Shown here piece after piece: positions 3,249 through 21,732 of a stretch of DNA of 64,000 nucleotides (its first letter is position 1; every line of letters starts with the position of its first letter). The DNA is from an uncultured Chloroflexia bacterium. Lineage in GTDB: Bacteria > Chloroflexota > Limnocylindria > Limnocylindrales > CSP1-4. The notes under the pieces were generated by a model. That model had not been told where the DNA came from. It ran no database searches and saw only the letters and a program-made list of their open reading frames with translations. A program made the position numbers and the translations under genes. Where the stretch lies: the NCBI GenBank assembly GCA_963828165.1, contig CAWHDR010000001.1, positions 512,001-576,000 of the forward strand, written 5' to 3'.

Positions 3249-3281
3249 ACGAGCCCCTCGCGCCTGCCGCGAGGGGCTCGT
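3249..3281 (-). terminator. hairpin terminator after the CAP gene
   Basis: ACGAGCCCCTCGCG-cctgc-CGCGAGGGGCTCGT perfect 14-bp stem about 20 nt after the stop. Confidence 0.65.
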
Positions 3282-3301
3282 GATGCGATCGGAGCGGATG
3301 G

Positions 3302-4111: not shown

Positions 4112-4331
4112 GCCCCGACTGTCGCTGCCAGCCCCGCCGGCCGATACGGGCCGGATGTTCCAGAGGTGCGGGGAGGATGGTCATGGTCCGGACCGCACCC
4201 CTTCGGTACCGACTGCCCCCGACCGCCACGCTCCCCTCCACTCACCTCCGGCCGGACCGCGCCCCGGGTCGGCCCGGCCGACGATGTGGGACGATGACGA
4301 CATCCGAACCACTCGCAAACGAGGAGTCGCC

Positions 4332-4775: not shown

Positions 4776-4802
4776 CCGCCGGTCGTCCATCCGCCGGTAG
4801 AA

Positions 4803-4865
4803 GTGGTGGACCGCGCGATGTTTGCGGCCAAGGCCGGCGGTCGCAACCAGGTCCGCCTCGCGACC
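4803..4865 (+). pseudogene. orphan C-terminal remnant of a GGDEF domain
   Basis: Translates VVDRAMFAAKAGGRNQVRLA, the canonical GGDEF end (compare ...MAKRGGRNQVVAA in the DGC ending at 42748); rest of the domain absent. Confidence 0.6.
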
Positions 4866-4934
4866 GGCCCTCACGGCATAGGCAGCTCCGAACGCGCATC
4901 GGTCAGGGGATGGAGCCCGCCGGTCGCCGCACCC

Positions 4935-5080
4935 GTGCACGGCCTGCTCCTATCAGCGAACGAACCATCGGAATCGAGCGCGAAACCCCGAAACCAACCT
5001 CTCATCCCGCGTGGGATGCGCCTCATGCACCAACGACGGCTTGGCAAGCCTCCGATCGACGATAAGAGCACCGGGTGCAT
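4935..5080. repeat. cluster of three degenerate 28-bp repeat units (+,+,-)
   Basis: Units 4935-4962, 5016-5043 and 5053-5080 (inverted); consensus about GTGC-N6-TGCNCCTATCAGCGAWCG; related copies at 24191-24338. Confidence 0.6.
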
Positions 5081-5109
5081 GCGCCGCGATGGCCGGCCCG
5101 CACGGGGCG

Positions 5110-6048: not shown

Positions 6049-6059
6049 GGCCCGCGATG

Positions 6060-6701
6060 CTACGCCGTCGCGACGGCCGGTTGCTCGACCCGGGCGGCGG
6101 CGAGGAGGACGTCGAGGATGGCGCGGGCGCGGCGCACGGCCTCCTCGGGCCGGTAGGCCTCGCCCGCCTCGATGCGCTGGAGCAGCTGGCCGTCCAGCAA
6201 CCCGAGGAAGCCCCGGGCGAAGCCATCGACATCCAGCCAGGCCGGGAGCTCCCCTCGCGCGACGCCCTCGTGCAGCAGCATCAAAGCGGCCCCCACGAGC
6301 TGCTCCCGGCGCCGGGCGAGCATCTCGCGGACCTCGGGCTCGTCGGGCGCCTCGGCCCAGGCTCGCACCAGCCCGACCTGCCCCGGCGCACCCTCGAACT
6401 GGTCGATCGTCTCGACGTAATAGGCGGCGGCCGCCGTGAGCTTGTCCGCGGTCGAGGTCAATGGGGCGAGGCGGATGGCGAGCTCATCGAGGCCCTGCCC
6501 GGAGAGCAGGTCGCAGCTGTGGAGGAAGAGCGCGTCCTTACCCTTGAAGTGCGTGTAGATCGCCCCGACCGAGAGGCCGGACCGCTGGACGACGTCCGCG
6601 ATGGTGGCGCGGTGATAGCCCTTTTCCGCGAACACCTCGACGGCGGCGCGGATGATCCGCTCGCGGACCTGCTGTTCATGTGCGGCGGAGATGCGAGGCA
6701 C
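6060..6701 (-). CDS. TetR/AcrR transcriptional regulator
   Basis: GTG 6701 after AGGAG; HTH FAEKGYHRATIADVVQRSGLSVGAIYTHFKGKDALF. Confidence 0.92.
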   Translation of the reverse strand: MPRISAAHEQQVRERIIRAAVEVFAEKGYHRATIADVVQRSGLSVGAIYTHFKGKDALFLHSCDLLSGQGLDELAIRLAPLTSTADKLTAAAAYYVETIDQFEGAPGQVGLVRAWAEAPDEPEVREMLARRREQLVGAALMLLHEGVARGELPAWLDVDGFARGFLGLLDGQLLQRIEAGEAYRPEEAVRRARAILDVLLAAARVEQPAVATA

Positions 6702-6761
6702 GGCTGGATGGCTCCTGAGGAATGGGCGCTCCCTCGACTCTATCGCAAGCGTACGCACGAA

Positions 6762-6805
6762 TCAACCTTTTCTGGTTGACAAGGGGAATATCCATTCTCT
6801 ATGGT
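6762..6805. promoter_or_regulatory. divergent promoter region with candidate TetR operators
   Basis: TCAACC-N6-GGTTGA palindrome 6762-6779; TTGACA (6776)-N18-TATGGT (6800) facing the MMPL gene; GAAT-N4-ATTC in the spacer. Confidence 0.5.
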
Positions 6806-6848
6806 TTCCGAGTTCGACTCGCCCGCTCGACCTTGGAGACGCGCCACC

Positions 6849-9203
6849 ATGTTTTCTCGCTGGGGAGCCTTCGTCTATCGCTTTCGTCGACCGATCGCGA
6901 TCCTCGCGGTGGTCCTGGCCATCGCCTCGGCGTCACTTGCGTCGCAGGTGACCGGGGCGCTCAGCGCCGGCGGCTGGACCGATCCTGATTCCGAATCGGC
7001 GGCGGTCGCCCAACGACTGGAGGACGAGTTCGGTGCCGGCGGTGGCGCGATCGTGGCTTTGTTCGACGGCGCGGCGGGTGACGACGCCCGCTCCGACGAG
7101 TTCCAGGCCGAGATCGCCGCGTCGCTCGACCGACTCCTCGCCGACGAGCGGACCGCTGGCGTCGTCGGCTGGGCGGAGACCCGCGACGACCGCTTCATCA
7201 GCACGGATGGGACGTCCGCCTACGTCCTGGTTCGGCTCGCGATCACCGACGAGGCCGCGGTCGACGAGATGCACGAGCTGCGCACCCTGATCGACCGGCC
7301 CGCCGGTATGACCATGCTGCTGACGGGCGTGGCGCCGGCGACCCAGGACCAGGCCGAGCAGTCGGAGAAGGAGCTGGTCCAGGCGGAGACGGTCTCGTTC
7401 CCGTTCGCCGCGCTCATCCTCATCCTCGTGTTCGCGTCGCTCATCGCGGCCGGCCTGCCCCTGGTCGTGGCCGCGTTGGCGATCCCCACGACGCTCGGCG
7501 GCGTCTACCTCGCCGCGCAGGTGACGGAGCTCTCGATCTACGTCCAGAACGTCGCGACGATGCTGGGCCTGGCCCTCGCCATCGACTACTCGCTGTTCAT
7601 GGTCAGCCGCTTCCGCGAGGAGCTCCGAAAGGGCCGGGACGTCGCCACCGCAGTCGAGATCACCGTCGCCACCAGCGGCAAAGCCGTCACCTTCTCCGGA
7701 CTTGCCGTGGCGGTCGGGCTGTCCGGGCTGCTCCTGTTCGAGCCGTCCGCCCTGCGCTCGTTCGGGATCGGTGGAGCCCTCACCGTCGCGGCGTCGGTCT
7801 TCTACGCCCTCACGTTCCTGCCGGCGGTCCTCGGCATGCTCGGGCATCGCGTCAACTCGGGCGGCGTGGCCGGATTGGGCGAGCGGATCCGGCGGGCGCT
7901 GGGTCGGCCGGTCGGCGAGGCGGCCGTCCTCGCCCGTGCGTCGCGCTGGGAACGCGTGGCGCATGCGGTCATGGCCCGTCCCGTCGCAGTCCTGATCCCG
8001 ACGCTTGCGTTCCTGCTCATTCTTGGCACGCCGTTCCTGCGACTCAGCCAGGGCATCCCCGATGCGTCGGTCCTGCCACCGGGCATCGAGAGCCGGGAAG
8101 CGGCGGTCGCGCTGTCGAACGACTTCCGGGCCGGCGAGACGTCTCCGATCGTGGTCCTCGCGACGGTCGACGGCTCCCCGACGGATGCGGCCAACGTCCA
8201 GCGCATCCTCGATCTCGGCGTGGCCATCGACGAGGTCGCGGACATCGACCGAGTCGAAGGCCCGTTCGTCGGGCTCAAGGATCCGGTCACCGGCGCCGAC
8301 CTTGACGCCGCGGGCATCTCGACCCTGTTCAACGCGCCACGCGACCAGCTCCCACCGGACGTCGCCGCCGGGCTCACCCGGCTCGAGGACGCCTACCTCC
8401 GCGATGCGACGGTGCGCCTCGATGCGATCAGTCCGCTCGCCCCGCTGAGTCCGGCGGGCTCCGCCGTCGTGCCGCTCGTCCGGGATGTCTCGGTCGATGG
8501 CGTCACCACGCAGGTCGGCGGGCTCGCGGCCGACGGGCAGGACTTCATGGCCAGCCAGTCCGGCACCATCCCGTACGCCATCGCCCTGACCCTTGGGGCG
8601 AGTGCCCTGATCCTGTTCCTGCTGTTCGGGTCGGTCATCATCCCGATCAAGGCCGTGATCATGACGCTGCTGTCGATCACCGCCTCGTTCGGCGCCCTGG
8701 TGTTCATCTTCCAGGACGGCAACTTCGCCGAGCTCCTCAACTTCGAGTCGCCGGGGTTCACCATCGCCGGCAACCCGATCATCATGTTCAGTGTCCTGTT
8801 CGGCCTCTCGATGGACTACGAGGTCCTGCTCCTGTCCCGCATCCAGGAGGCCTACCGGCGGACCGGCGACAACACCGCGTCGGTCGCCGAGGGCCTGGCC
8901 AAGACCGCCGGCGTCATCACCGGCGCGGCGCTGATCATGGTCACGGTGTTCTCGGCGTTCGCGCTCGCCGAGTCGATCACCATCAAGAGCATCGGCGTGG
9001 GCATGGCGATCGCGGTCCTCATCGATGCCACGATCGTGCGAGTCCTGCTCGTCCCGGCCACCATGCGGCTCATGGGCCGCTGGAACTGGTGGGCACCCGG
9101 ACCGCTGGGCCGCTTCGCGGACCGGCTCGGGTTCAACCACGTCGAGGATGTCGAGGTCCAGGCGGCATCCATCCCGGCGCCGTCGGCGACCCCGGCCGGG
9201 TAG
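6849..9203 (+). CDS. MMPL/RND-family transporter
   Basis: ATG 6849 after GGAG; two repeats with GLALAIDYSLFMVSRFREE and FGLSMDYEVLLLSRIQE; MGRWNWWAP. Confidence 0.95.
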   Translation: MFSRWGAFVYRFRRPIAILAVVLAIASASLASQVTGALSAGGWTDPDSESAAVAQRLEDEFGAGGGAIVALFDGAAGDDARSDEFQAEIAASLDRLLADERTAGVVGWAETRDDRFISTDGTSAYVLVRLAITDEAAVDEMHELRTLIDRPAGMTMLLTGVAPATQDQAEQSEKELVQAETVSFPFAALILILVFASLIAAGLPLVVAALAIPTTLGGVYLAAQVTELSIYVQNVATMLGLALAIDYSLFMVSRFREELRKGRDVATAVEITVATSGKAVTFSGLAVAVGLSGLLLFEPSALRSFGIGGALTVAASVFYALTFLPAVLGMLGHRVNSGGVAGLGERIRRALGRPVGEAAVLARASRWERVAHAVMARPVAVLIPTLAFLLILGTPFLRLSQGIPDASVLPPGIESREAAVALSNDFRAGETSPIVVLATVDGSPTDAANVQRILDLGVAIDEVADIDRVEGPFVGLKDPVTGADLDAAGISTLFNAPRDQLPPDVAAGLTRLEDAYLRDATVRLDAISPLAPLSPAGSAVVPLVRDVSVDGVTTQVGGLAADGQDFMASQSGTIPYAIALTLGASALILFLLFGSVIIPIKAVIMTLLSITASFGALVFIFQDGNFAELLNFESPGFTIAGNPIIMFSVLFGLSMDYEVLLLSRIQEAYRRTGDNTASVAEGLAKTAGVITGAALIMVTVFSAFALAESITIKSIGVGMAIAVLIDATIVRVLLVPATMRLMGRWNWWAPGPLGRFADRLGFNHVEDVEVQAASIPAPSATPAG

Positions 9204-9806: not shown

Positions 9807-11210
9807 CTACTCCGCGGGGCTGGCCACCACCGGCAATCCGTCAGCCGCTTCGGCCACGGCTTCGGCGAGGACATCCGCGATCCGCACGAGCTCCTCGTCC
9901 GCGACGATGAACGGCGGTCCGAGCAATATCGTGTCGCCGTCGATGCCGTTCGCATTGCCGGTACCCGAGTAGACCAGCAATCCACGGCCCCGGGCCGCGA
10001 GGACGATCGCCTCCGTGACCCTCGCGGCACGCGGGTACGGCCGGCGGGTGGCCCGGTCCGCCACGAGCTCCAGACCGACCATCAGTCCCCGGCCACGGAT
10101 GTCACCGACCCGCTCATGGCCGTCGAGCCGCTCGTGCAGGAGCGCCAGCAGCCGTTCGCCCTTGCTGGCACTGGCGGCCACCAGGTCCTCGTCGTGGAGG
10201 ATGCGCAGGACCTCCCGGGCGACTGCCGCCCCGACCGGCGAGTGCGAGTACGTGAACCCGTGGACGAAGCCGGCGCCCGGAGCCATCACGGTCTCGAACA
10301 CCGGTCCCGCCGCCGCGACGAACCCGAACGGCCAATACCCGGACGTCGCGCCCTTGGCCGCGACCAGCAGGTCCGGCCTCACGCCCCAGTGGTCGAGGCC
10401 GAACCAGCGTCCCGTCCGGCCGAACCCGGTCATGACCTCGTCCGCGACGAGCAACACGCCGTGGCGTGCGCAGACCTCCGCGATGGCGGGCCAGTAGTCG
10501 TCCGGGGGCGCGGCGGCGGCGAGCGTGGCCCCGACGATCGGCTCCGCGACGAAGGCTGCCACGCGACCGGCACCCGCCTCGGTGATGGTCGTGTCGAGCT
10601 CGGCGGCGAGGGCCGATGCGTCGCCCAGGGCGTGGGCCGCGGCCTCGCCAGCGCGGTATGCGTAGGCCGCCGACACGTGGCGGAAGCGGCCCAGCCAGGG
10701 CTCGTACGGACGGCGCAATGGCGGACGGCCCGACAGGTCCAGGGCCCCGAGCGTGTTGCCGTGGTAGCTGCCGTGCCGGGCGATGACCACGTCACGGTCG
10801 GGTTCGCCGCGGGCGAGGTGGTAGGCACGGACCAGCTTGAGGGCCGTCTCGATGGCCTCGGAGCCGCCCGAGACCGGGTAGATCGCCGGGTCGTCCACGG
10901 GCAGGACCGCGGCGACCTCAGTGGCGTAGGCCTCCAGTGGCTCGGTCGTGAACGCGCTGCCGTGGGCGTAGGCCAGGCGGCCGCCCTGGCCGGCCATGAT
11001 CGCTGCGATGTCCGCGCGCCCATGACCCACGTTGACGACGATCGCCCCGCCGGCCGCATCGAGGTACTCCCGCCCGGCCGAGTCGCGGATGGTCGACCCG
11101 GACGCCGACACCGCGACCGGTGGCGCATCGACCGTCGTACGGCGGAAGACGCGACCGCGCGTGGGGGCGAAGACGGACCGAGGCTCAGGCATCGCCCGAT
11201 CGTAGGCCAT
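9807..11210 (-). CDS. class III PLP aminotransferase
   Basis: YLDAAGG, SGGSEAIETALK, SYHGNT, FVAEPIVG, DEVMTGFGRTG, AAKG, HGFTY; start may be ATG 11192. Confidence 0.93.
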   Translation of the reverse strand: MAYDRAMPEPRSVFAPTRGRVFRRTTVDAPPVAVSASGSTIRDSAGREYLDAAGGAIVVNVGHGRADIAAIMAGQGGRLAYAHGSAFTTEPLEAYATEVAAVLPVDDPAIYPVSGGSEAIETALKLVRAYHLARGEPDRDVVIARHGSYHGNTLGALDLSGRPPLRRPYEPWLGRFRHVSAAYAYRAGEAAAHALGDASALAAELDTTITEAGAGRVAAFVAEPIVGATLAAAAPPDDYWPAIAEVCARHGVLLVADEVMTGFGRTGRWFGLDHWGVRPDLLVAAKGATSGYWPFGFVAAAGPVFETVMAPGAGFVHGFTYSHSPVGAAVAREVLRILHDEDLVAASASKGERLLALLHERLDGHERVGDIRGRGLMVGLELVADRATRRPYPRAARVTEAIVLAARGRGLLVYSGTGNANGIDGDTILLGPPFIVADEELVRIADVLAEAVAEAADGLPVVASPAE

Positions 11211-11285
11211 GCGTCGCCGGGGCGCCGCCCCGCCGCCGGCTATCGCGAACGCCGACGCGGTCCCCCTCCCCTAGGATGGACGGGG

Positions 11286-14200
11286 ATGCAGCATCTCGAT
11301 GTCGAGCTCGGCCGCGACGAACCCGAGGCATACATCGCCCGGGACCGCCGCCGAGCGCTCGCGACCCGGACCGAGATGCCCGATCGGGTCCGCGGCGCGG
11401 CACTGTTCGCCGACGTCTCGGGATTCACGCCGCTGACCGATGCCCTCGCGAATGAGCTCGGCTCGCAACGTGGCGCCGAGGAGCTCACCGCCAACCTGGG
11501 CCGCGTCTTCCACGCCGTCATCGAAGAGCTCGATCGCCACGGGGGCGACGTCATCTACTTCTCCGGCGATGCCATCACCTGCTGGCTCGATGGCGACGAC
11601 GGCCTGCGTGCGACCGCGGCCGCGCTGGCGATGCAGGCCGCGATGGCCCGCGTCGGGACGATCCGGACGCCGGCCGGGACGACGGTCCAGCTCGCCCTGA
11701 AGGTCGCCGTGGCCGCAGGTGACGCCCGCCGGTTCGTGGTGGGCGACCCCGAGATCCAGCTCATCGACGTCCTGGCCGGCGCCCTGATCGACGACCTCGC
11801 GGAGACCGAGCATTACGCCGAGAAGGGCGAGGTCGTGCTCGATCCATCGGCGGTCGCGGGCCTTGGTGACCGGGTCCGGATCGCGGACTGGCGTGACGCC
11901 GCCGGCGGCGATCGCCGGTTCGGGGTCGTCGAGTCGCTCCTTGCGGATGTCCCGACGCGTGCCGTGGAGGAGCCGCCACCGTTGGATGACGAACTCGTCC
12001 GACCGTGGCTGCTCCCCGTGGTGTGGGAACGGCTCCGCGCCGGCCGCGGCGAGTTCCTGGCCGATCTGCGGCCCGCCTTCCCATTGTTCCTGCGCTTCGG
12101 GGGCATCGACTACGACCATGACGAGGACGCCATCGAGAAGCTCGACGACTTCGTCCGGCACGCGCAACGGATCATGGCCGGCTTCGGTGGGAACGTCCTG
12201 CAGCTGACGCTGGGCGACAAGGGCGCCTACCTGTACGGCGTGTTCGGCTCACCGGTCGCGCACGAGGACGACGCGGCGCGAGCGGCCGCAGCGGGCCTGG
12301 AGCTGCGCGACCTGGAACGCACGACCCATGCCCGCGACATCCAGATCGGCATCACCCACGGTCGGCTCCGCAGCGGCACGTATGGGCACGCGATGCGTCG
12401 GACGTTCGTCTGCCTCGGTGACGCGGTGAACCTGTCGGCCAGGCTGATGTCGGCAGCGGCACCGGGGAGCATCGTCGTCGGGGACGAATTGCACGACCTG
12501 GCCGGTGACGCGTTCCTGTGGGAGCGCCTGCCCGACTTGAAGGTCAAGGGCAGGACCTGGGACATCGTGGCGTATCAGCTGACCGGCTCACTCGAGCGCG
12601 CCTCCCGGCGTCGGATCCGCTACGAGTTGGAGCTCGTCGGCCGGCGCGGGGAGCTCGCCGCGCTCGACGAGGGCCTCGAGGCCGCGCTCGCGGGAGAAGG
12701 CGGGATCGTCGGGATCGCCGCGGAGGCCGGCATGGGCAAGTCGCGCCTCGTCGCGGAGTTCGTGCGTAGCGCCCGACGGCGCGGCGTTTTCGTCGCCTTC
12801 GGGGAGTGCCAGTCGTTCGGCACGAACGCGAGCTACTTCGTGTGGCGCGAGATCTGGCGACGCCTGCTTCGGGTCGAGGACGCCGACTCGGACGACGAGC
12901 AACGGCGGGGAGTCGAGGCGGCGCTCGAGGCGATCGATCCGGCGCTCGCGCCCCGCGCTCCCCTGCTCGCGACCGTGCTCGGGCTGGAGATCCCGGACAA
13001 CGACCTGACGGCCGCGCTCGACGCGAAGCTGCGCAAGGCGTCGCTCGAGGATCTCCTCGCGACGTGCCTTCGCGACCGGGCCGCCGGCGAGCCGCTCGTC
13101 CTGGTACTCGAGGACTGTCACTGGATCGACGCGCTGTCGCGCGACCTGCTCGAAGCGCTCGGCCGGGCCGCGCTCGGGCTGCCGGTCCTGATCGTCCTGG
13201 CCTATCGCCCGACCAACGAGCCCGGTGGCGGTCTCGGCGTCGAACGCCTGCCGTCGTTCTCGGAGATCGGCCTCGCCGAGCTCGACGCCCACGACGCGGC
13301 CGAGCTGATCCGCTCCAAGCTCGACCAGGTCCGAACCACGGGCGGGGAGGCGGGGTCAGGGTCGGAGGCTGGGGAGGCCCTCGTAGCGCTTGTCATCGAG
13401 CGATCCGGCGGCAATCCGTTCTACATCGAGGAGCTCATCACCTACATCTCATCGCACGGCGTGGACCCGGGTGACGCCGCCGCCGTTCGTGCACTGGAGC
13501 TGCCGGAGAGCCTGCACAGCCTCGTTCTGTCACGGATCGATACGATGGGCGAGGAACCGCGCCGTACCCTCAAGGTCGCCAGCGTCGTCGGGCGCGTGTT
13601 CGAGGCGCCGGTGCTGCCCGGCGCATACCCGGAGCTCGGCGGCCTCGACACGGTCATCGAGCAGCTCGACACCCTGCGTGCCGCCGATCTGGTCAACCTC
13701 GATCGCGAAGCCGATCAGGCCTACCTCTTCAAGCACGTCGCCACCCAGGAGGTCGCCTACGAGAGCCTGCCATTCGGCCTTCGGGCGATGCTCCACGGCC
13801 GGGTCGGCGGCTACATCGAACGCTCCGACCCGGACGCGATCGAGCGACGACTGGACCTCCTGGCGCACCACTTCTGGAACAGCGATGACGAGGAGCGCAA
13901 GCGGTCGTACCTCGCGCGCGCCGCCGACGCCGCCCGTGCCTCCTACGCGAACACCGCGGCCATCGACTACCTGACCCGCCTGGTCCCGCTGCTCGAGGGG
14001 GCCGAGCGCACGGACGCGATGCTCAAGCTGGCCAAGGTCCATGAGCTCGTCGGTGACTGGCCGGTGGCCGAGTCCGTCGCGGGGGAGGCGTTATCCCTCG
14101 CGACCGGCCTGGGCGACCGGAGCGCGCAGGGGTGGAGCCACGCGGCCCTGGCCGAGATCGCTCGCAAGCAGGGTCGGTTCGATGACGCCACCGGGCATTT

Positions 14201-15026
14201 GGACGAGGCGCAGGCCGCCTTCGAGGCCGTCGGCGCGGACGACGGGACGGGCCAGGTCCTCCACCTGGCGGGGACCGTGGCGGCCCAGCGCGGCGACTAC
14301 GACGCGGCCCAGGCCCGCTACGAGGAGAGTCTCGCCATCCGCCAGCGGCTCGACGACAAGGCGAGCATGGGCGGCCTCTATTCCAACCTCGGGGTCATCG
14401 CCGAATACCGGGGCGACTACGCCGGGGCGCGCGCCCTCAACGAGCAGGCGCTGGCCATCCGGACCGAGGTCGGCGATCGCTGGGCGATCGGCGTTTCCCA
14501 GAACAATCTCGGGATGATCGCGCTCCACGAGCGCGCGTTCGGTGAGGCGAGTGAGCGGTTCGAGGAGTCGATCCGCCTGAACCGCGAGGTGGGCGACGCC
14601 TGGATGGTCGCGATCGGTCACAACAACCTCGGCACGGCGACGCGCGGCCTGGGCGATCACATCGCCGCCCGCGAGCACTACGCGGCGAGCCTCCGGGTGT
14701 ACCGCGACTACGACGACCGTTGGGCCCTCGCGTTCCTGCTCGAGGACATCGCCGTCCTGGCCGGGCAGGCGGGGGATCCGGAGGTGGCCTTCGAGCTGCT
14801 CGGCGCCGCGGAGAGCCTGCGGACGACGATCGGGTCCCCCCGCGGCGCCGTCCTTGAGCAGGAGCTGGCCGATCGATTCGCCGCCGCGCGCTCGAGCTTG
14901 GGGAACGTGGCCGCGGACGCCGCGGTGGAACAAGGGCGCTCGATGGATCTCCACGACGCACTTGAGCTGGCGGTCTCGATCTGTGCATCGCTTGGCGTCA
15001 GCCAGACGCGTGACCAGGACTATTGA
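11286..15026 (+). CDS. soluble-type adenylate/guanylate cyclase (tandem class III domains) with STAND NTPase and TPR repeats
   Basis: ATG 11286; LFADVSGFT, FSGDA, LGDKG, GDAVNLSARL; Walker A AEAGMGKS, Walker B LVLEDCHW, GGNPFYIEEL; C-terminal TPRs (NLGVIA, NNLGMIA, NNLGTA). The ORF-track extension to 10116 is antisense shadow. Confidence 0.92.
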   Translation: MQHLDVELGRDEPEAYIARDRRRALATRTEMPDRVRGAALFADVSGFTPLTDALANELGSQRGAEELTANLGRVFHAVIEELDRHGGDVIYFSGDAITCWLDGDDGLRATAAALAMQAAMARVGTIRTPAGTTVQLALKVAVAAGDARRFVVGDPEIQLIDVLAGALIDDLAETEHYAEKGEVVLDPSAVAGLGDRVRIADWRDAAGGDRRFGVVESLLADVPTRAVEEPPPLDDELVRPWLLPVVWERLRAGRGEFLADLRPAFPLFLRFGGIDYDHDEDAIEKLDDFVRHAQRIMAGFGGNVLQLTLGDKGAYLYGVFGSPVAHEDDAARAAAAGLELRDLERTTHARDIQIGITHGRLRSGTYGHAMRRTFVCLGDAVNLSARLMSAAAPGSIVVGDELHDLAGDAFLWERLPDLKVKGRTWDIVAYQLTGSLERASRRRIRYELELVGRRGELAALDEGLEAALAGEGGIVGIAAEAGMGKSRLVAEFVRSARRRGVFVAFGECQSFGTNASYFVWREIWRRLLRVEDADSDDEQRRGVEAALEAIDPALAPRAPLLATVLGLEIPDNDLTAALDAKLRKASLEDLLATCLRDRAAGEPLVLVLEDCHWIDALSRDLLEALGRAALGLPVLIVLAYRPTNEPGGGLGVERLPSFSEIGLAELDAHDAAELIRSKLDQVRTTGGEAGSGSEAGEALVALVIERSGGNPFYIEELITYISSHGVDPGDAAAVRALELPESLHSLVLSRIDTMGEEPRRTLKVASVVGRVFEAPVLPGAYPELGGLDTVIEQLDTLRAADLVNLDREADQAYLFKHVATQEVAYESLPFGLRAMLHGRVGGYIERSDPDAIERRLDLLAHHFWNSDDEERKRSYLARAADAARASYANTAAIDYLTRLVPLLEGAERTDAMLKLAKVHELVGDWPVAESVAGEALSLATGLGDRSAQGWSHAALAEIARKQGRFDDATGHLDEAQAAFEAVGADDGTGQVLHLAGTVAAQRGDYDAAQARYEESLAIRQRLDDKASMGGLYSNLGVIAEYRGDYAGARALNEQALAIRTEVGDRWAIGVSQNNLGMIALHERAFGEASERFEESIRLNREVGDAWMVAIGHNNLGTATRGLGDHIAAREHYAASLRVYRDYDDRWALAFLLEDIAVLAGQAGDPEVAFELLGAAESLRTTIGSPRGAVLEQELADRFAAARSSLGNVAADAAVEQGRSMDLHDALELAVSICASLGVSQTRDQDY

Positions 15027-15147: not shown

Positions 15148-18100
15148 GTGAGTTTGCTGGGGACGTCTGTCGTTGTGTCTGACAACCCACGGCTGCGCCG
15201 TGGCTGGAGACGGGCTCCCGTCGTGCGCCGCGCGATCGCGCTGTTGCTGCCAGCCCTGCTCGTCGCTCAGCTGCTGCCGCAGTTCGCTCCAGTCGCCCTG
15301 GCCGCGGACGTGGTCGGTGTCGCGCTCAACAACGGCGTCACCGGCTCGGGATACACCGGGTTCAACGGCAATGCGACCAACCCGAACGCGCAGGACCTTA
15401 CGGCCCTGGGCGCCACCGACTGGCGGATCTGGGGCACGAGCGCAGGCGAACCGCTCCTGGCCGGCAGCGCCCGCAAGAGCGGTGGATCCGGGATCAGCTC
15501 CCTCTCCGACATCCAGCAGATCCCGAACATCCCGCTCCGTGCGCTGGGCCCGCTCGGTCTGTCGGTCGGCAACGGTTCGTCGACCTTGCCGTTCTCGTTT
15601 GCCTGGTCCGACGGCGCGTCCCCCGTCAGCGCCACCGCGACGAAGGGCGGGCTTCAGCACAACGCCCCGGCTGGCGGCTCCGTCGGCTACGGCTTCGGGC
15701 TCAGTGTGCCTGCATCCACGACGTCGCAGCGCCTTACCTTGTGGGTCTCCGCCCATCATGGCACCGGAAAGCTGACCGCCAACATCGGCAGCACCGTCCA
15801 GACGAACACGGGCGTGACCGGCGGCCAGAACCACGGCGGCGTCTACACGATCGACTTCTCCGGAGATGGCGTCGAGGAGGTCCTCGAGGTCGCGTACGTC
15901 CTGGACTCGCTGAGCCCGTCGCCCGACGAGGTCGGCCTCCCCTCGACCGAGGCAAACGTCGTCGTATACGCGGCGGCGCTGTCCCCGACGCCCGGGGCGA
16001 CTGTCCAGGCGCCTGTCCTCTATCAAGCGATTCCGGGAGGCACGCAACCAGGCGCTGATCAGCGGCCGCCTCACCGGCAGTCCCACGACGACGTATGAGG
16101 TGACCGTCAAGACAGCCGCGTCGTGCGTTGCCGGCGTGCTCGGCGCGGGCGGCTCCACCCTCGCAGTGGGCGGCTCGCCCTCGTTCTCTGTCACCACCAA
16201 TGCGAGCGGTCAGGCCGACTTCAGCTCGCTTGCGCCAAATGGTTCGGCTCTCGCCGCGTACGTGACCGCGGAAGTGACCGGCCCAGGCTCGATCACCAGC
16301 GCACCTTCCTCGTGCATCGTCGCTGGGGAAGATAACGACACGTGGCCGCGCGCCCGGGCGATCTCTTTGGTCGAGGGGGGCGGATCGGCGGCCGGCCATA
16401 TCGACGACGCTGGGCGGGCGCGCTGGTTCAAGGTTGCGATCCAGCCGGGCCAACGCCTGAACCTGACGTTGTCGGGCCTCCCGGCCGACTTCGACATGTT
16501 CGTGTTCCGGGACATCGCGAAGACCTATGCCTCCCTCACGAGTACGACGGATCTCACGCGTCTCAGCGCGGAATTCGCCCCCTCGGCGTTTTCCCCGTCG
16601 GCGTTCTCGCCCTCAGCGTTCTCTCCCTCAGCGTTCTCGCCCTCAGCGTTCTCCCCTTCGGCCTTCTCCCCTTCGGCCTTCTCGCCATCCGTTTTCTCAC
16701 CGTCCGCGTTCAGTCCGTCCGCGTTCTCGCCGTCGGCCTTCAGCCCGTCGGCGTTCTCGCCCTCGGCGTTCAGCCCGTCGGCGTTCAGCCCTCGGCGTTC
16801 AGCCCGTCGGCGTTCAGCCCGTCGGCGTTCAGCCCGTCGGCGTTCAGCGCGGACACCTATGCGAGCGCGCAGATCCGAAGCCTCATCACGGGCTCCGGAA
16901 ACGCCGGACTGACCAGCGAAAGCATCGTGGTCGACACGTGGAATAACACCGGCGACTTCTACATCCGAGTCAACGGCAAGAACGGCGCCTCGAGCCTCGC
17001 GCCCTTCACGCTCGGCATCACCGTCGTCGGCAGCGACTGTGATGGAGTACTACCCGTGGCCGCCGACAGCTTCGTTGCCCCGGCGGGCAGCTATGAGACC
17101 CTGATCTTGAGCGATCTGTCCCGCATGGACGAGGCCGTCACCGGCAACGCGGTGGCGGACAAGACGGCCCTCGCCGCCGACCTCGAGACCTTCGCGGCTC
17201 TGCCAGAGATCCGCGGTGACGTCGTCGACGTCAGCAGCCGGCCACGAATCGTGGCGCTCAACACCCAGGCCGACGACGCGACGACCTGCATGTACGCCAA
17301 GAACCTCGTCGCCTCGTCGATCCGTGATCTGGTGACGGCGTACCGCGCCACGAATCCCGGCTTGAAGTACGTCGTGATCGTCGGTGCCGACGACGCCATC
17401 CCATTCTTCCGATACCCCGACCAGGCACTGCTCGGCCCCGAAGCGGAGTTCGCCGCGCCCGTGAACAGTGGTACGGCCTCCGACGCGAGTCTGCGCGCGA
17501 ATTACGTGCTCGGGCAGGACGCCTACGGCGCATCGATCGACCTGTCGGTCCGGGCCTCCACGTTCCCGATCCCGGACCTCCCGGTCGGGCGCCTCGTCGA
17601 AACAGCCGCCGAAGCGTCACGCATGATCGATGCGTATGGCTCGACGAACCGCGGGACGGTCGACACTCCGACGTCTGCCCTTGTCACGGGTTACGACTTC
17701 CTCGATGACGCCGCCCGCGAAGTCAGCGACGAACTCGATGCGGGTATGGGCACGGCCGGGACGGTCAACGAAGTGATCTCGAGCAGCGATGTGGCGCCAC
17801 TGGCCCTCTGCGGTCTTCCGTCCGCGGCGCCGCTCAGCCTCCCTGATTGCTCCTGGGATGCGAACGCCCTGCGTACGGCGCTCCTTGGCTCGCCTCACGA
17901 CCTGGCATTCCTGGCCGGCCACTTCAGCGCCAACAGCGCCCTGGCGGCCGACTTCCGGACGAACCTGCTCACGACGGACCTCGCCGCCTCGCCGGTCGAC
18001 CTCCGGAGTTCCATCGTCTTCAGCGCGGGCTGCCACTCGGGGTACAACCTCGTCGATGGTGACGCGATCACCGGTGTCAGCCTGCCGCTCGATTGGGCGC

Positions 18101-20223
18101 AGGCCTTCGCCCAGAAGCGATCCATCCTGATCGCCGGGACCGGCTACCAGTACGGTGATACCGACTTCCTCGAGTACAGCGAACGGCTGTACCGCGACTT
18201 CGCGCGCGAGCTTCGCGCCGGGGCAGCCGGGACGGCGATCTCCGTCGGTGAGGCCCTCGTCCGGGCCAAGGTGACCTACCTCGCGACCACGCCGGACATC
18301 CGTGGCATCCACGAGAAGGCCATCCTCGAGGCGACCCTTTTCGGCCTCCCGATGTTCGGCGTGACGATGCCGGCCGGCCGTGGTGCGACACCGGGCACCG
18401 GTGGCCCACTCGCGACGACCGCGGTCACGACGGAGCCCGCGGCCTCGCTTGGACTCGCCACCCATGACCTGACCCTCACGCCGACGCTGACCCCGCAAAA
18501 TCGTCTGCTCAAGAACCCGCCCTACGACGCGACACCGGGGACCTTCACGGACGCCAAGTGGCTGTCCGGACCCAACGGCGTCGTCACCAACCCCGCCGAG
18601 CCGGCACTGCCGCTCGTCGCCCGGAACGTCACGGCCACAGACGACGACCTCGTCCTGCGCGGCGTCGGGTTCCGCGGCGGAACCTACGTGGACACGCCGG
18701 GGATCGTCCCGCTCACCGGAGCACCCACCACGGAGCTGCGTGGCGTGCACGCCCCGTTCGTCTCGCCCGTGTTCTACCCGATGCGCCTCTGGAGCCCGAA
18801 CTACTTCGGGGCACTGGGCGAGCACGGTGGCACGAACCTCCTCGTGACACCGGTCCAGCACAAGACGGACAACCCGCTCCTCGGGACGAGCATCCAGCGC
18901 AAGTACACCGGACTCGACCTGAAGCTGTACTACAGCGGCAATCTGACAGCGGCGGCCCTGTCCGACGCCCCGACCATCGTGGATGTCCAGACCGAAACCG
19001 TCTCGGGCAACGTCAACTTCACGGTCCAGGTCGTGGGCGATCCCAAGGCGGCCGTCCATGGCGTCTGGATCACCTTCACGGGCGGCACCGGCACCTGGGC
19101 GCCGCTCGACCTCACCCAGGACGCGACCGATTCTCGTCTCTGGACGGGCACGCTGCCATCGGCATCGGCGCCGGCGAACCTCAAGTTCGTCGTCCAGGCC
19201 GTCAACGGCTTCGGCCTCGTCTCGTTCGACGACAACCGTGGTGCCTACTACGCTGCTGCCGGCAGCGCCGGTGGGGCCGCGGAAACCTCCCTCGAGCTGA
19301 TCGCCCCGCCGACCAGTGGGACGTTCGGCCAGAGCCCGGCCATCACGGTCGAACTCAAGGCGGGCTCCACACTGCTCGCCAACAAGCCCGTCGTGATCGG
19401 CATCGGTGGTTCCGGCGCCGTCGGCGTGACCGGCTCCAACGGGCGCGCCACGGTCCGCGTGCCCCTCTCGACGTCACCTGGCACGACCCAGATCCAGGCC
19501 TCGTTCGGTGGTGACGCCACCCACGCAGCATCGAGCGATTCGGCCGAACCGTTCACGATCGCCAAGGCGACCGCGAGCCTGTCGCCGTTCAGCGCATTCG
19601 TGACGCAGACGCCGACCACGAACACGGGCGCCGTGACCACGCTCAGCGCGGCGCTGGGCGGCCCGACGCCCGTGCCACTCACCACCAGCCCGCTCATCCA
19701 GCGGACCGTGACCTTCACGCTGACCGGGCCGGTCACCAGGACCATCTCCACCATCACCGATTTCCTCGGCCAGGCGAAGCTGCCCAAGGGTCTGCCCGCG
19801 GGTACGTACAACGTCACGGCGACCTTCGATGGCGACAGCACGTTCACGAGTGCGACCCGCACGGGCTCCCTCATCATCGCCCCGTTCACCGGGTTCTTCT
19901 CCCCGGTCGACAGCCTGCCAACGCTCAATACCGTCAACGCGGGTTCCAGCATCCCGGTCAAGTTCAGCCTGGGCGGCAACCGCGGCCTGGCGATCTTCGC
20001 GACGGGCTACCCGCTGGCTTCGAAGATCACGTGCGACTCCGGCCTCCCCGTAGACGCGATCGAGGAGACGACGACATCAGCCAGCGGACTCGTCTACGAC
20101 GCGGCTACCAACCAGTACAAGTACACGTGGAAGACGCCAAAGACTTATGCGGGCGCCTGCTACCGGCTCGACCTCAAGATGATCGACGGCAGCGCCTTCA
20201 GCGCGAACTTCAAGTTCAAGTAG
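15148..20223 (+). CDS. secreted protein of about 1690 aa: PPC-like domain with PSAFS repeat insert, C25/gingipain-like protease domain, Ig-like domains, PxKF domain (two compensating frameshifts)
   Basis: Joins ORFs 15148..16098, 16100..16912 and 16342..20223 through a +1 shift near 16045 (NQALISGRLTGSPTTTYEVTV continues) and a -1 shift at 16790. Signal peptide ...APVALA|AD; YVVIVGADDAIPF, LAFLAGHF, IVFSAGCHSG; C-terminal FTGFFSPVD...AGSSIPVKFSL. Confidence 0.8.
16580..16848 (+). repeat. 18x 15-bp coding tandem repeat encoding (PSAFS)n
   Basis: 17 PSAFS plus one PSVFS; synonymous codons vary (Ser as TCN and AGY); unit 15 at 16790 is 14 bp. Confidence 0.95.
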
Positions 20224-20282
20224 TCCCGGTCGACCCGCTGGGCGCCGCGTGCGCCCAGCCGGGAACATCGGGAACCGGCATG

Positions 20283-20312
20283 GGGAACCGGCAGGGGCCG
20301 GGCGGTGTAGTC
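20283..20312 (+). promoter_or_regulatory. ECF sigma-type promoter (autoregulatory)
   Basis: GGAACC-N15-GTGTA; same motif and spacing at 21735-21764. Confidence 0.7.
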
Positions 20313-20328
20313 AGTGCGGATCCGATAC

Positions 20329-20893
20329 GTGGAGGGCCGTCCACATCGAAGACGCCGACCTGATCACGCGCGCCCGGACCGGTGACGTCGCAGCGTACGA
20401 AGAGATCGTTCGCCGCTACCAGGACGTCGCCATCCGGACCGCGCACCTCGTGTGCCCGGAGACCGATGCCGACGATGCCGTCCAGGACGCCTTTCTCAAG
20501 GCCTACGACGCGCTGCCCCGCTTTCGCGATGGCGCCCCGCTGCGCCCATGGCTGCTGCGGATCGTCACCAACGAAGCGCGCAACCGGAGGCGATCGGCGG
20601 GGCGACGACAGGGGCTCGCGCTGCGCGCGGCGGCGAGGGAGCCGCGCGACGCCGCGGTCCCGGGGCCCGAGGCGACGGTGATCGCTGCCGAAGCGAGCGC
20701 CGAGCTCATGGCCGCCCTGAACACCCTGCGTGACGACGATCGAGAGGTCTTGGGGGCTCGCTTCCTCCTGGACCTTTCGGAAGCCGAGACCTCCGAAGCG
20801 CTCGGGCTCCCACGTGGGACCGTGAAATCACGGACCTCGCGCGCGCTCATGCGCTTGCGCGACGTCCTCACCGCCGCGGAGGTGTCGCGATGA
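20329..20893 (+). CDS. ECF RNA polymerase sigma factor (start uncertain)
   Basis: Region 2 DADDAVQDAFLKAY...WLLRIVTNEARN; region 4 LSEAETSEALGLPRGTVKSRTSRA. Start is either ATC 20345 after GGAGG or GTG 20329 with a 1-nt indel. Confidence 0.9.
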
Positions 20894-21732
20894 GCGATCA
20901 GCTCACACGGCTCGCCGCCCGTGACGACGCCGGTCTCGAGGCGATGCTGCGAGGCACGGCGGCGTCCATCGCCTGGCCGACCGCCAGCCCGCCTGGTGCA
21001 CCGGACGTCGCCACGCGCGTTCGCGTCCGACTCGCGGCTGCTCCTCGGCCCACGGCCCGCCGTCCGTGGGCGGCGTGGCGGCCGGTCCGGCGCGGCTTGG
21101 TGCTCGCGCTCATCGCCCTGCTCGCGCTGGCCGCGATCGCCGGGGCAATCGGGCTCGGATTGCCGGGGCTGCAGCTGATCCTTGGCGAGCCGCCGGCCAG
21201 CCTGCCGCCCTCCGTGGCACCCAGCCGGACCCCTCCCCCGGGCGCGCTGGGGTCATCGCTTGGCCTCGGCGACAACGTGACGCTCGAACAGGCCGAGGCC
21301 ATCACCGGGATCGTGGCGCAGCTCCCTGGCGATCCGGCCATCGGCCCACCCGACGAGGCGTATGTCGATCGAACGCGCGGGAACCAGGTCGCCTTCGTCT
21401 GGGCGGCGAGCGAGACGCTGCCCGAGACCCGTGAGCCGGGCATCGGGCTGATCGTGATGCGGTTCGAGGGCAAGCTCGACGACGGGTATCGGCAGAAGCT
21501 CATCGGGAACGGCGTGACCGTCGAGCGCGTGACCGTCGACGGTCAGCGTGGCTTCTGGGTCTCCGGCGAAGCGCATTTCTTCTTCTACGTCCACGAGGGC
21601 CGTGGACACATCGACGACGGTCGTCGATGGGTGGGTGACGCCCTCGCATGGACGGACGGCGACACGACGTACCGGGTCGAGAGCGCTCTGGGAAAGGACG
21701 CGACGATCACCCTGGCCGAGTCGCTGGAGTAA
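20890..21732 (+). CDS. probable membrane-anchored anti-sigma factor
   Basis: ATGA overlap with the sigma gene; short cytoplasmic N-terminus, one TM helix, extracytoplasmic domain (VTVDGQRGFWV, LAWTDGDTTYRVES). Confidence 0.75.
   Translation: MSDQLTRLAARDDAGLEAMLRGTAASIAWPTASPPGAPDVATRVRVRLAAAPRPTARRPWAAWRPVRRGLVLALIALLALAAIAGAIGLGLPGLQLILGEPPASLPPSVAPSRTPPPGALGSSLGLGDNVTLEQAEAITGIVAQLPGDPAIGPPDEAYVDRTRGNQVAFVWAASETLPETREPGIGLIVMRFEGKLDDGYRQKLIGNGVTVERVTVDGQRGFWVSGEAHFFFYVHEGRGHIDDGRRWVGDALAWTDGDTTYRVESALGKDATITLAESLE

Follow-up and report, generated by a model that had tools for sequence, protein, structure and literature searches.

Among secreted cysteine peptidases, the closest described relatives of the enzyme considered here are the gingipains RgpB and Kgp of Porphyromonas gingivalis (MEROPS family C25, clan CD), whose C-terminal domain is a type IX secretion CTD. 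Its gene neighbour is closest to MalT and the mycobacterial cyclase-ATPase-TPR proteins, which are STAND-type signalling NTPases with TPR sensors. In the window, the 64,000-nucleotide stretch of DNA that was analysed, positions 15148-20223 of the forward strand form a single gene of ~1,690 codons. With high confidence, this locus encodes a secreted multidomain cysteine peptidase from an uncharacterised branch of the gingipain fold, with an array-bearing PPC-type sandwich as its signature and a cyclase gene as its usual partner.

Layout and catalytic domain of the peptidase

The gene is split over three frame pieces (Table 1), and its product runs from a signal peptide through an N-domain, an Ig-like domain, a PPC/collagen-binding-type sandwich split by 18 PSAFS units, and a gingipain-fold catalytic domain to Big_3_5 and PxKF domains. 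The domain order given in the preliminary description stands for the two PPC halves, the LAGHF...SAGCHSG motifs, Big_3_5, and PxKF, all of which could be placed, while the signal-like N-terminus is a reading from sequence. There, a basic stretch is followed by a hydrophobic stretch and a putative cleavage site between ALA and AD, after residue 52, and sequence and hydropathy predict that the peptidase is likely secreted by a Sec-type route. An alternative GTG start lies at 15223. The N-terminal domain has no above-threshold match in Pfam or NCBIfam, and the Cys-bracketed domain that follows it, for which a Pfam search gave no match, has a putative Ig-like fold. The PxKF domain (NF038114) is one of three C-terminal domains of this type in the genome.

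Table 1 Features of the peptidase locus and the adjoining gene.
Feature	Position	Strand	Basis
Partner gene, cytoplasmic: two cyclase-homology regions, AAA_16 P-loop NTPase, MalT-like TPRs	11286..15026	+	Pfam, PADLOC
Frame pieces of the peptidase gene	15148..16098, 16100..16912, 16342..20223	+	ORF list
Signal-peptide-like N-terminus	15148..15303	+	Sequence, hydropathy, similar N-termini in homologues
N-terminal domain, frame 1 piece	15304..16041	+	86% identical to N-terminus of homologue P0006
Frame break 1	16038..16046	+	tblastn with five intact homologues; flanking peptides
Putative Ig-like, Cys-bracketed beta domain, frame 2 piece	16046..16330	+	Conserved block in alignments A1 and A2
PPC/collagen-binding-type sandwich, first half (DNDTWP...RWFKV...LPADFDMFVF), with helical lead-in ending AEFA	16331..16579	+	Pfam PPC, AF2
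Array of 18 pentapeptide units	16580..16848	+	Unit-by-unit reading; equivalents in homologues
Frame break 2	16790..16791	+	Unit 15 is 14 nt; its Pro codon is one base short, in a C run
PPC-type sandwich, second half (ADTYASAQIRSL...DTWNNTGDFYIRVNG...)	16849..17028	+	AF2, packs with first half
Gingipain-fold (C25-like, clan CD) catalytic domain	17092..18378	+	Pfam C25, AF2, RgpB/Kgp matches, invariant His/Cys
Motif YVVIVGADD	17368
Motif LAGHF	17911
Invariant His codon	17920-17922
Motif SAGCHSG	18022
Invariant Cys codon	18031-18033
Conserved beta-rich middle region with Ig-like domains	18379..19881	+	Conserved blocks in A1
Big_3_5	about 19303-19560	+	Pfam 41.3 bits, two stretches
C-terminal PxKF domain (NF038114, 'rightmost') and stop codon	19888..20223	+	130 bits against a cut-off of 35

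The catalytic domain matches the Pfam family Peptidase_C25 with 30.6 bits against a cut-off of 23, and was modelled by AF2 with a pLDDT of 91.1 and a pTM of 0.91. Compared by aligned ranges, rather than by residue-level superposition of His and Cys, the model matches RgpB with a Z of 32.6 and an rmsd of 2.7 Å over 310 residues, 1cvr with a Z of 31.9, and Kgp with a Z of 27.4, the next group being separase with a Z of 16.8. The His follows strand 305-309 and the Cys follows strand 342-346, and both residues are invariant in the aligned sequences (32/32 and 78/78). The C25 score, the match to RgpB, and the invariant dyad residues bear out the earlier assignment to the gingipain-type peptidases of clan CD. 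Sequence profiles did not reach the gingipains in the PDB.

The two frame breaks are both one-base homopolymer length changes. At the first, the window has one base more than its homologues in a G run (ccgggagg), flanked by the peptide LYQAIPGG in one frame and NQALISGRL in the next. Contigs in run X3 from a relative that is roughly 88% identical have one base fewer at 16045 and an extra C behind 16788, and both peptidase frames are restored in relatives' contigs. We consider the breaks probably an assembly error rather than true decay. That they could instead be real mutations, making this copy of the peptidase a decaying pseudogene in the strain, is a possibility of some weight: two breaks fall in a 5-kb gene, against about 12 kb of other long genes in the same assembly that were checked and found unbroken (the partner gene of 3.7 kb, and rpoB with rpoC at about 8 kb); within the genus the family has a patchy distribution, occurring in 7 of 24 genomes with just one near full-length copy; and broken family copies also occur in genomes G012 and G015. 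Against decay stand the homopolymer nature of both changes and the state of the frames on either side, which have no additional stops and share 82-86% identity with an intact homologue. The genome, in six contigs at 87.7% completeness, is compatible with residual indel errors. In addition, 66 of 69 other loci have an unbroken array span, and the two frame changes found in this span are confined to records that resemble long-read assemblies, classed by record name only (2/18 'MFD ... contig_' records compared to 0/51 others).

The pentapeptide array and its host domain

The array consists of 16 PSAFS units and one PSVFS unit, all intact, and one broken unit of 14 nt, in agreement with the 18-fold PSAFS repeat originally reported; TRF gives a period of 15 with 18.2 copies at 16574-16845. 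The 17 intact units comprise 13 distinct DNA units, and across their 136 pairs there are 327 synonymous codon differences and 16 non-synonymous ones, all of the latter due to the single Val unit. Serine at position 5 is encoded ten times by TCN and seven times by AGY. Among the differences listed for the relative about 88% identical to the window, all 28 inside the array are, judged by their coordinates, either third-position changes or whole TCN/AGY swaps of Ser codons. Over 70 loci, arrays contain 5-20 distinct DNA units but just 1-6 distinct peptide units. On this codon evidence, the array is kept by purifying selection at the protein level, with units identical within a protein, as had been proposed from its mixed codons. 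No Pfam or NCBIfam model covers the array and no paper describing it was found, in line with its earlier description as an undescribed repeat module. Its match to Pentapeptide_4 reaches 16-18 bits against a cut-off of 38 (E 0.002-0.01).

Pfam PPC matches the first half of the sandwich over profile positions 3-39 of 70 with 21.2 bits, which is below the Pfam cut-off. AF2 modelling of the orthologous region from locus L023, with a 78-row alignment, placed the first half in strands at residues 38-80 (pLDDT above 90) followed by helices at 83-102, and the second half in a helix at 195-205 and strands at 206-255 (pLDDT above 90). The two halves join as one sandwich, which VIA matched to the collagen-binding domains of ColH and ColG (Z 13.8 to 3jqw and 13.7 to 2o8o) and to the PPC domain 5sv5 (Z 11.2), with the matches spanning model residues 20..254 and thus bridging the insert. 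The repeat therefore does lie inside a PPC-like domain, as first suggested. Array residues 108-185 have no strands and a pLDDT below 50, although low confidence on perfect repeats is not proof of disorder.

The peptidase family is a large, widespread, and unstudied branch of the gingipain fold, with hosts among soil and sludge Chloroflexota, Actinomycetota, Burkholderiales, Verrucomicrobiota, and others. Its signature is a PPC/collagen-binding-type sandwich directly N-terminal of the catalytic domain, with one loop carrying the array. Of 120 homologues, 98 carry an array, as do 70 of 80 genome loci, so the repeat is neither absent from nor unconserved in homologues, and the expectation that it would be conserved holds. 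The array is found at the same place in 137 of 139 new cluster representatives, in which a C25 domain follows wherever enough sequence is available, with one spurious exception. Units follow the pattern P-x-x-aromatic-x, usually in 18-20 copies (49 of 70 arrays, counted with a regex that takes in one or two degenerate units at the flanks as well). Across proteins the unit types are PSVFS (27), PDAFS (13), PSAFS (11), PEAFS (6), and others; only the Pro and the aromatic residue are near-invariant, every unit type seen has at least one Ser or Thr, and a PDAY[SA] unit is kept at position 5 in many arrays. Some members have atypical inserts: four or five PAALS units, a 10-residue period with Arg, or the non-periodic insert of P0258. 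The N-terminal modules of the family include DUF642, GON, VWA, beta-helix, and choice-of-anchor C. Neither this wide spread nor the conserved cyclase-ATPase-TPR neighbour had been mentioned in the preliminary description.

The partner cyclase gene and possible roles of the array

The ORF list starts the gene upstream of the peptidase at 10116, which is too early; its probable start codon is the ATG at 11286. Pfam identifies Guanylate_cyc, AAA_16, TPR_12, and TPR_MalT in its product, and PADLOC gives weak PycC matches in two separate regions. All eight neighbouring genes that were tested at other loci encode the same cyclase/AAA_16/TPR architecture, and the source genome has one full-length copy. 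Such a gene adjoins the peptidase at 55 of 81 loci across phyla, lying upstream on the same strand at 29, downstream on the same strand at 18, and on the opposite strand at 8. It is missing from 26 loci; at 14 of these a flank does not reach 4 kb, and at the other 12 both flanks are at least 4 kb. Cross-phylum identity is about 68-72% for the peptidase and 60-63% for the cyclase, and the two identities correlate with a Spearman coefficient of 0.57 over 536 cross-phylum pairs that are non-independent through kinship. The linkage of a cyclase/P-loop/TPR gene to the array peptidase, in several orientations and several phyla, is newly noted here; a pairing of this type of cyclase with a secreted C25-like peptidase was not found in the literature.

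Most likely, the array presents one short motif in multivalent form on an exposed, unstructured loop, and a single site co-evolving with that motif would read it repeatedly. As a tentative and rather doubtful proposal, the array may act as a tethered, multi-copy motif loop whose putative reader is the substrate cleft of the enzyme itself. The sandwich and loop would then serve as a pro-region or tethered sacrificial substrate, holding or delaying peptidase activity after export; the gingipain prodomain, which has an inhibitory loop, offers a comparison. The partner cyclase would tie expression to a signal in the cytoplasm, possibly peptide products taken up by the cell. Taken as one statement, the identity of the enzyme, this array mechanism, and the coupling to the partner make up a reading that we hold with somewhat less than even confidence. 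Several observations count against reading by the enzyme's own cleft. Only Pro and the aromatic residue are near-invariant in the units; cleavage by those clan-CD enzymes that have been characterised occurs after Arg, Lys, Asn, or Asp, none of which is found in most arrays; and a role as substrate or fuse leaves a copy number near 18-20 unexplained. Because Pro-rich sequence is usually resistant to proteases, the array could equally be built to survive beside the enzyme.

It is unlikely, but conceivable, that the array is a multivalent binding brush whose ligand would be a periodic polymer, for example a glycan strand, a fibrous protein, or the cell's own envelope; along with the variable N-terminal modules, the brush would then keep the enzyme attached to its substrate. 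The collagen-binding fold of the host domain, the N-terminal modules, which are typical binding domains, and the aromatic residue as the most conserved unit position all fit this idea, as do a length near 18-20 units, which suits a need for reach or valency, and identical units, which suit a periodic ligand. However, the model offers no defined surface, and the short, degenerate, and non-periodic inserts of some members depart from a fixed period, so that a fixed periodic match is not universal.

The Ser/Pro-rich composition, the predicted lack of structure, and the Ser or Thr retained in each unit type would accord with a hydrated spacer loop, probably O-glycosylated, that has no sequence-specific reader and owes its uniformity to the way it arose. 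We think this quite unlikely: such loops normally drift in sequence and length, yet here the peptide units are identical despite many synonymous changes, TCN/AGY swaps included, whole arrays change concertedly between proteins while retaining the odd PDAY unit at position 5, and no glycosyltransferase was found among the conserved neighbours.

It is improbable that the array is a signal-peptide polyprotein, from which some 18 identical, lineage-specific pentapeptides would be released by proteolysis and taken up by the cell, where the TPR sensor of the adjacent STAND-type cyclase would bind them and respond with cAMP. RRNPP-type TPR receptors bind peptides of 5-7 residues encoded beside them, and the ligands of MalT-type STAND sensors are products of secreted enzymes. 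In line with these precedents, the units are identical within proteins and different between them, a protease domain lies next to the loop, which is exposed and has no predicted structure, and a receptor-like TPR gene adjoins in a pair common to several phyla. Nonetheless, the units have no spacers or processing sites between them, no oligopeptide permease was found among the conserved neighbours, the cyclase is absent at the 12 loci with ample flanks, and the near-constant copy number is left unexplained.

Finally, the earlier suggestion that the array folds or self-assembles as a regular beta structure (a solenoid, Phe ladder, or fibre) and so brings protease molecules together or activates them is very improbable, unsupported rather than disproved, since its strict period of five with one aromatic per unit, near-constant unit number, and weak Pentapeptide_4 similarity are set against that score falling below cut-off, a strandless, low-confidence monomer model, variants with Asp or Glu at position 2 of every unit, which would bury charge given the inward-facing positions of a pentapeptide-repeat-type helix, and a Pro content of 20%, typical of elastomeric or disordered sequence and not of amyloid.

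Comparison with known systems

The peptidase shares the catalytic fold of RgpB and Kgp over both subdomains (310-320 aligned residues), including the C25 match and the placement of His and Cys after adjacent strands. Like gingipains, it is a secreted multidomain protein in which Ig-like domains follow the catalytic domain and a dedicated domain forms the C-terminus. In contrast, identity to gingipains is 10-16%, beyond the reach of sequence profiles; the split PPC-type sandwich and array occupy the place of the gingipain prodomain; the C-terminal domain is PxKF rather than a type IX secretion CTD; and the hosts are not Bacteroidota.

The sandwich resembles PPC and the ColG/ColH collagen-binding domains (rmsd 2.1-2.6 Å over 101-109 residues), but it is N-terminal rather than C-terminal of the catalytic domain and about 130 inserted residues, two helices plus the array, divide it. 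It also scores below the Pfam cut-off for PPC. With the pentapeptide-repeat proteins of Pfam, which form a right-handed quadrilateral beta helix, the array shares its period of five, a single Phe-type residue in each unit, and small residues two places ahead of that residue. It differs in having Pro in each unit, units that are identical rather than degenerate, an HMM score far below cut-off, no predicted beta helix, and a position as a loop inside another domain.

The order of the partner protein, with cyclase homology, AAA_16 P-loop, and MalT-like TPRs, is that of STAND-type NTPases with TPR sensors, from which it differs in its two tandem cyclase-homology regions, in having no detected DNA-binding domain, and in its specific linkage to a secreted C25-like peptidase gene. 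By analogy only, the RNA polymerase II CTD heptads and elastin-like VPGXG sequences also consist of many identical short Ser/Pro/aromatic or Pro units that are selected and predicted to be unstructured, and they act, where known, through multivalency; unlike them, the array is bacterial, extracellular, and contained within a loop of a folded domain.

Predicted fold of the peptidase and its split sandwich

The window peptidase is predicted to be a secreted enzyme with a gingipain fold, with a sandwich of binding type directly before the catalytic domain. Profiles from Pfam and NCBIfam identify Peptidase_C25, Big_3_5 and PxKF domains in the gene (Table), with no match in either collection for the N-terminal 300 residues, whose beginning resembles a Sec signal in the window and in homologues, as judged from sequence only. 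An AF2 model of the catalytic region (pLDDT 91.1, pTM 0.91) matches RgpB (4ief_B, Z 32.6, rmsd 2.7 Å over 310 residues; 1cvr, Z 31.9) and Kgp (Z 27.4), with separase (16.8), CHAT proteases (~15) and PorU (13.7) scoring well below the gingipains, in agreement with the fold proposed in the preliminary description. The candidate catalytic His and Cys are each preceded in the model by a hydrophobic strand and a Gly, the pattern of clan CD, and neither residue varies in alignments of 32 and of 78 sequences. The dyad proposed from the sequence stands as a candidate, with its invariance and the gingipain fold in its favour. Profiles do not reach the gingipains in the PDB: a whole-protein profile matched no PDB chain beyond an Ig-like domain of intimin and a poly-Q stretch, and a profile of the catalytic domain only had no match there at E up to 10.

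The repeat had also been described as splitting a PPC-like domain. The PPC profile covers only the first half of this domain in the window, below its cut-off, and scores 17.9 bits on the homologue P0005 (cut-off 25.9). Because break 2 interrupts the PPC region of the window, we instead folded the orthologous region of L023, a public MAG record that also has the PSAFS unit, from a 78-row alignment. In this model both flanks of the array have pLDDT >90 and form one sandwich (strands at residues 38-80 and 206-255), with two helices leading into the insert and two leading out (83-102 and 185-205). The sandwich resembles the ColH and ColG collagen-binding domains (Z 13.8 and 13.7, rmsd 2.2 Å, 105-109 residues) and the PPC domain 5sv5 (Z 11.2), and the fold alignments span residues 20-254, crossing the insert. 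Thus the split domain is supported by the predicted structure, but not by PF04151. The array itself (residues 108-185) has pLDDT <50 and no strands or other secondary structure, although low confidence is no proof that a fold is lacking. The ESM Atlas gave no usable match with the array region as query.

Table. Positions of features in the window and of related features in other sequences
Feature	Position	Details
5' extension of the mechanical partner ORF	window 10116-11285	begins ~390 codons early; homology and cyclase domain from near the ATG at 11286
Partner gene	window 11286-15026 (+)	Guanylate_cyc 37.6, AAA_16 88.5, TPR_12 112 bits
Peptidase ORFs	window 15148..16098, 16100..16912, 16342..20223 (+)	within 15148-20223; overlapping or abutting, two frames
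Signal-like N-terminus		basic, hydrophobic, then ALA-AD
Break 1	window, between 16041 and 16046	LYQAIPGG in one frame, NQALISGRL in the next
PPC (PF04151), first half only		profile positions 3-39 of 70; 21.2 bits, cut-off 25.9
Tandem repeat (TRF)	window 16574-16845	period 15, 18.2 copies
Array units	window 16580-16848	16 PSAFS, one PSVFS and the broken unit
Break 2	window 16790	array unit 15 has 14 nt; Pro codon one base short within a C run
Catalytic region modelled	window 16990-18462	
Candidate catalytic His codon	window 17920-17922 (+)	after strand 305-309
Candidate catalytic Cys codon	window 18031-18033 (+)	after strand 342-346
Peptidase_C25 (PF01364)	P0003 (piece of the window gene) residues 178-524	profile positions 47-371 of 374; 30.6 bits, cut-off 23
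Big_3_5		found by Pfam
PxKF (NF038114)	P0003 residues 1036-1146	130 bits, cut-off 35; up to the stop codon
ECF sigma factor, then 280-residue ORF	window 20249-21732	directly 3' of the peptidase; Sigma70_r2/r4; the ORF has no family
Homologue P0006, aligned region	window 15271-20220	86% and 82% identity (N-terminal pieces), 63% (catalytic half)
L003 (same-genus genome G015), paralogue or orthologue	592-5921	frame-broken inside a PAVFS array
L039, arrays of two tandem family members	6989-7267, 13403-13651	same odd ADVFS unit in both
L093, 15-nt tandem DNA repeat	~5700-7000	perfect, ~16 copies
L096, 15-nt tandem DNA repeat	~5900-7000	perfect, ~16 copies
Further ORF ends with PxKF (window genome)	G000:C1:1405366-1405686, 1520827-1521132	ORFs of 1,339 and 1,643 residues

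Selection on the array and breaks in the reading frame of the gene

Strong purifying selection acts on the array, whose identical motifs make up an exposed loop. Its 17 intact units are encoded by 13 different DNA sequences, and over the 136 unit pairs there are 327 synonymous codon differences compared with 16 non-synonymous ones, all 16 of which stem from the single Val unit. The Ser at unit position 5 is encoded ten times by TCN and seven times by AGY. In contigs from a relative (~88% identical), the array differences among those listed (28, as read from their coordinates, with 156 further rows beyond these) are all third-position changes or complete TCN/AGY swaps. The repeat had been described correctly in each detail checked: the unit count, the near-invariant peptide, the mixture of synonymous codons, and the use of both Ser codon types. 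Its misfit to the pentapeptide-repeat family also held, with Pentapeptide_4 scores of 16.4, 18.5 and 17.6 bits falling below the cut-off of 38. To our knowledge, few bacterial extracellular proteins conserve identical short units so strictly. The array has no match above threshold in Pfam or NCBIfam, where no family model covers it, and the literature covered, which lies outside subscription journals, yielded no paper on this family, on its array or on the PxKF domain. The array module, as had been suggested, and the gene partnership described below are undescribed; the kind of enzyme, gingipain-type, is known.

The three ORF pieces, in a window of 70.2% G+C, are all colinear with one protein in tblastn comparisons with five intact homologues, and read piecewise they encode ~298, 248 and 1,143 residues (~1,690 in total). 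The homologues have as many residues as the window between the two sequence blocks flanking break 1, indicating that the window carries one surplus base in ccgggagg. We consider the two breaks to be probable assembly errors rather than true decay of the gene. Both are one-base changes in homopolymer length, the flanking frames otherwise stay open and share 82-86% identity with an intact homologue, relatives' contigs show exact compensating indels at both breaks, and the window genome consists of 6 contigs with 87.7% completeness. Counting toward real decay, no break is seen in rpoB, rpoC or the partner gene of the same genome, the peptidase family is patchy in the genus (7/24 genomes), and broken copies of the gene occur in genomes G012 and G015. 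A tblastn frame check of 69 other loci finds the array span unbroken in 66, with frame changes in 2 of 18 records classed as long-read by their names and in none of 51 others; one of these 51 carries a stop in frame. Public sequencing runs recovered 0.05-0.09 of the stretch, and their window-identical contigs span neither break. Programmed frameshifting was dropped as an explanation because the breaks have opposite signs, lie 750 nt apart in plain homopolymers, and do not occur in the 66 intact loci. For annotation, repeat-borne frame breaks in long-read assemblies need checking before they are called gene loss.

Extent and variation of the family

A word-indexed search scored 8,000 candidates, of which at least 904 proteins reached E up to 0.001, and an exhaustive HMMER search with the PPC region plus array as query identified 2,088 cluster representatives at the same threshold (757 at 1e-10 and 308 at 1e-30). 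Public records name these proteins 'PxKF domain-containing', 'C25 family cysteine peptidase', or hypothetical. A period-5 array occupies the same place in 98 of the 120 listed homologues; the 22 others are mostly short forms that begin after the array position, including P0098 and P0099, which begin near the catalytic domain as judged by the position of Big_3_5. The top 150 HMMER matches contain 139 new members, 137 with the array. The His/Cys domain is present in 104 of these 137 (96 by the first motif test, 7 by variant motifs such as GCHVG, and P0193 by BLAST), and 32 stop too soon past the array for it to be judged. The sole array-like match lacking C25, P0126, is a long multi-copy repeat ORF unrelated to the family and was set aside.

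Of 523 pattern matches in species-representative genomes, 499 encode relatives. Going by their record titles, the 80 loci retained represent Limnocylindria, Anaerolineae, Caldilineaceae, Ardenticatenaceae, Gaiellaceae and Acidimicrobiia, as well as Casimicrobiaceae and other Burkholderiales, Verrucomicrobiota, Haliangiales, and one record labelled Nitrosopumilus. With arrays in 70 of the 80 loci, the repeat is kept in homologues; the median is 19 units and 49 of the 70 arrays have 18-20, counted with a regex that also takes in one or two degenerate units at the flanks. PSVFS is the major unit in 27 arrays, PDAFS in 13, PSAFS in 11 and PEAFS in 6; nine further types occur as well, and more distant members have PSGYL, PGTYL, PQQFL, PSQWS or ASGFT. 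Each array has far more distinct DNA units (5-20) than distinct peptide units (1-6), and many carry one odd PDAY[SA] unit at position 5 with all other units alike in another sequence. Some members depart from this pattern: L052, L053 and L057 have a 10-residue period with Arg, the PAALS array of the Verrucomicrobiota record L092 is short, L072 has [GA]QAFS, and the insert of P0258 is not periodic. A loop insert is therefore universal in the family, and the strict pentapeptide array is its commonest form.

Searching the phylum with the array only gave matches at E up to 1e-5 in 26 of 301 genomes, mostly weak and of low complexity. Among eight such places followed up, L097 (PQQFL), L099 (PSGYL) and L100 (PGTYL) are divergent family members, L098 shares the PSGYL array, there in a frame of 561 residues, several imperfect arrays of period 5 lie at L094, and nothing was found at L095. 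The tandem DNA repeats of L093 and L096 belong to two genomes of this phylum, stay open in more than one frame on either strand, and are not family members.

The PPC-array-catalytic core is constant and the region N-terminal to it varies among members, with DUF642, GON, VWA, right-handed beta helix, choice-of-anchor C or Kelch-type modules swapped ahead of the Ig-like and PPC domains (in members including P0005, P0059, P0062, P0117 and L100). L003 ends in repeats that by eye resemble TolB-type propeller blades, where others have the PxKF domain. Identity is uneven along P0006 (Table), and at L013 the cyclase is 82.5% identical to that of the window and the peptidase 64%; this mosaic suggests recombination between the targeting and catalytic halves. 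The PxKF domain also ends two more ORFs of the window genome, and none of 14 control genomes has it; it may serve these proteins as a common C-terminal tag for sorting or anchoring.

Most of what is known of gingipain-fold peptidases comes from a single oral pathogen and its relatives. The proteins described here form a large sister branch in environmental Chloroflexota, Actinomycetota and Proteobacteria, and the family merits its own annotation model.

The linked cyclase gene and possible roles of the array

A linked gene for a cytoplasmic sensor-cyclase accompanies the peptidase. When the ORFs of the 80 loci and the window were clustered, the most widespread cluster after the peptidase was the window's upstream gene. 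It encodes a protein of ~1,230-1,260 residues with two cyclase-homology regions, an AAA_16 P-loop and MalT-like TPRs, found in one chain in all eight neighbours tested. It directly adjoins the peptidase in 55 of 81 loci (upstream on the same strand in 29, downstream on the same strand in 18, and on the opposite strand in 8); in the 26 loci where it is missing, the flank is <4 kb in 14 and ample in 12. The window's genome has one full-length copy. No third widely conserved neighbour was found among the 81 loci. In the window and in a minority of loci the peptidase is followed by an ECF sigma factor and a possible anti-sigma. A similar ORF clusters in 10 loci, so we take this as a lineage-limited addition to the two-gene pair. 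The tandem family members at L039 have no cyclase neighbour.

Peptidase and partner identities covary (Spearman 0.59 over 982 pairs and 0.57 over 536 cross-phylum pairs), and in records labelled Chloroflexia, Gaiellaceae and beta-proteobacterium the peptidases are 68-72% identical and the cyclases 60-63%. Because kin are not independent, this covariation is consistent with transfer of the two genes as a pair, rather than a test of it.

Units held identical by selection imply a reader, and since they change in concert between proteins we infer that one reader co-evolves with them. The nearest candidate would be the enzyme's own cleft, and the sandwich and loop could, tentatively, be a pro-region or tethered sacrificial substrate that the cleft reads. 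Known clan-CD enzymes need Arg, Lys, Asn or Asp at P1, and the absence of these residues from most arrays counts against such self-reading, which also leaves the near-constant copy number unexplained. That the array is instead a brush that binds polymers seems unlikely, and that it is a glycosylated spacer is a still more doubtful proposal. We think it improbable that the array is a peptide signal, released and read by the neighbouring partner. The fullest form of that proposal, a long shot when taken as a whole, is a mobile two-gene cassette whose secreted enzyme bears a polyprotein of ~18 identical, lineage-specific pentapeptides: proteolysis would free these from the exposed loop, and once imported they would be the ligand of the adjacent TPR-STAND protein, which would oligomerise and make cAMP. 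Complex prediction for the partner TPR region (382 residues, 32-row alignment) with 70 array residues, run without controls, scored 0.01 and 0.00 relative to a mark of 0.32, values that count neither for nor against binding. A regular beta assembly is very improbable, given the low pLDDT of the array and its lack of secondary structure in the L023 model.

The pairing of peptidase and cyclase-STAND-TPR protein across phyla offers a testable link from a secreted protease to cytoplasmic second-messenger signalling. If the array were indeed a source of imported pentapeptides, the cell would gain a reading of the protease it secretes, of either its activity or its density. Such a system would be peptide signalling of a new kind, in which pro-peptide and processing enzyme are fused. 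Of the traits of RRNPP cassettes, the two-gene arrangement shows the adjacency of the genes and a TPR domain; its output domain is a cyclase, rather than the HTH or phosphatase of RRNPP systems.
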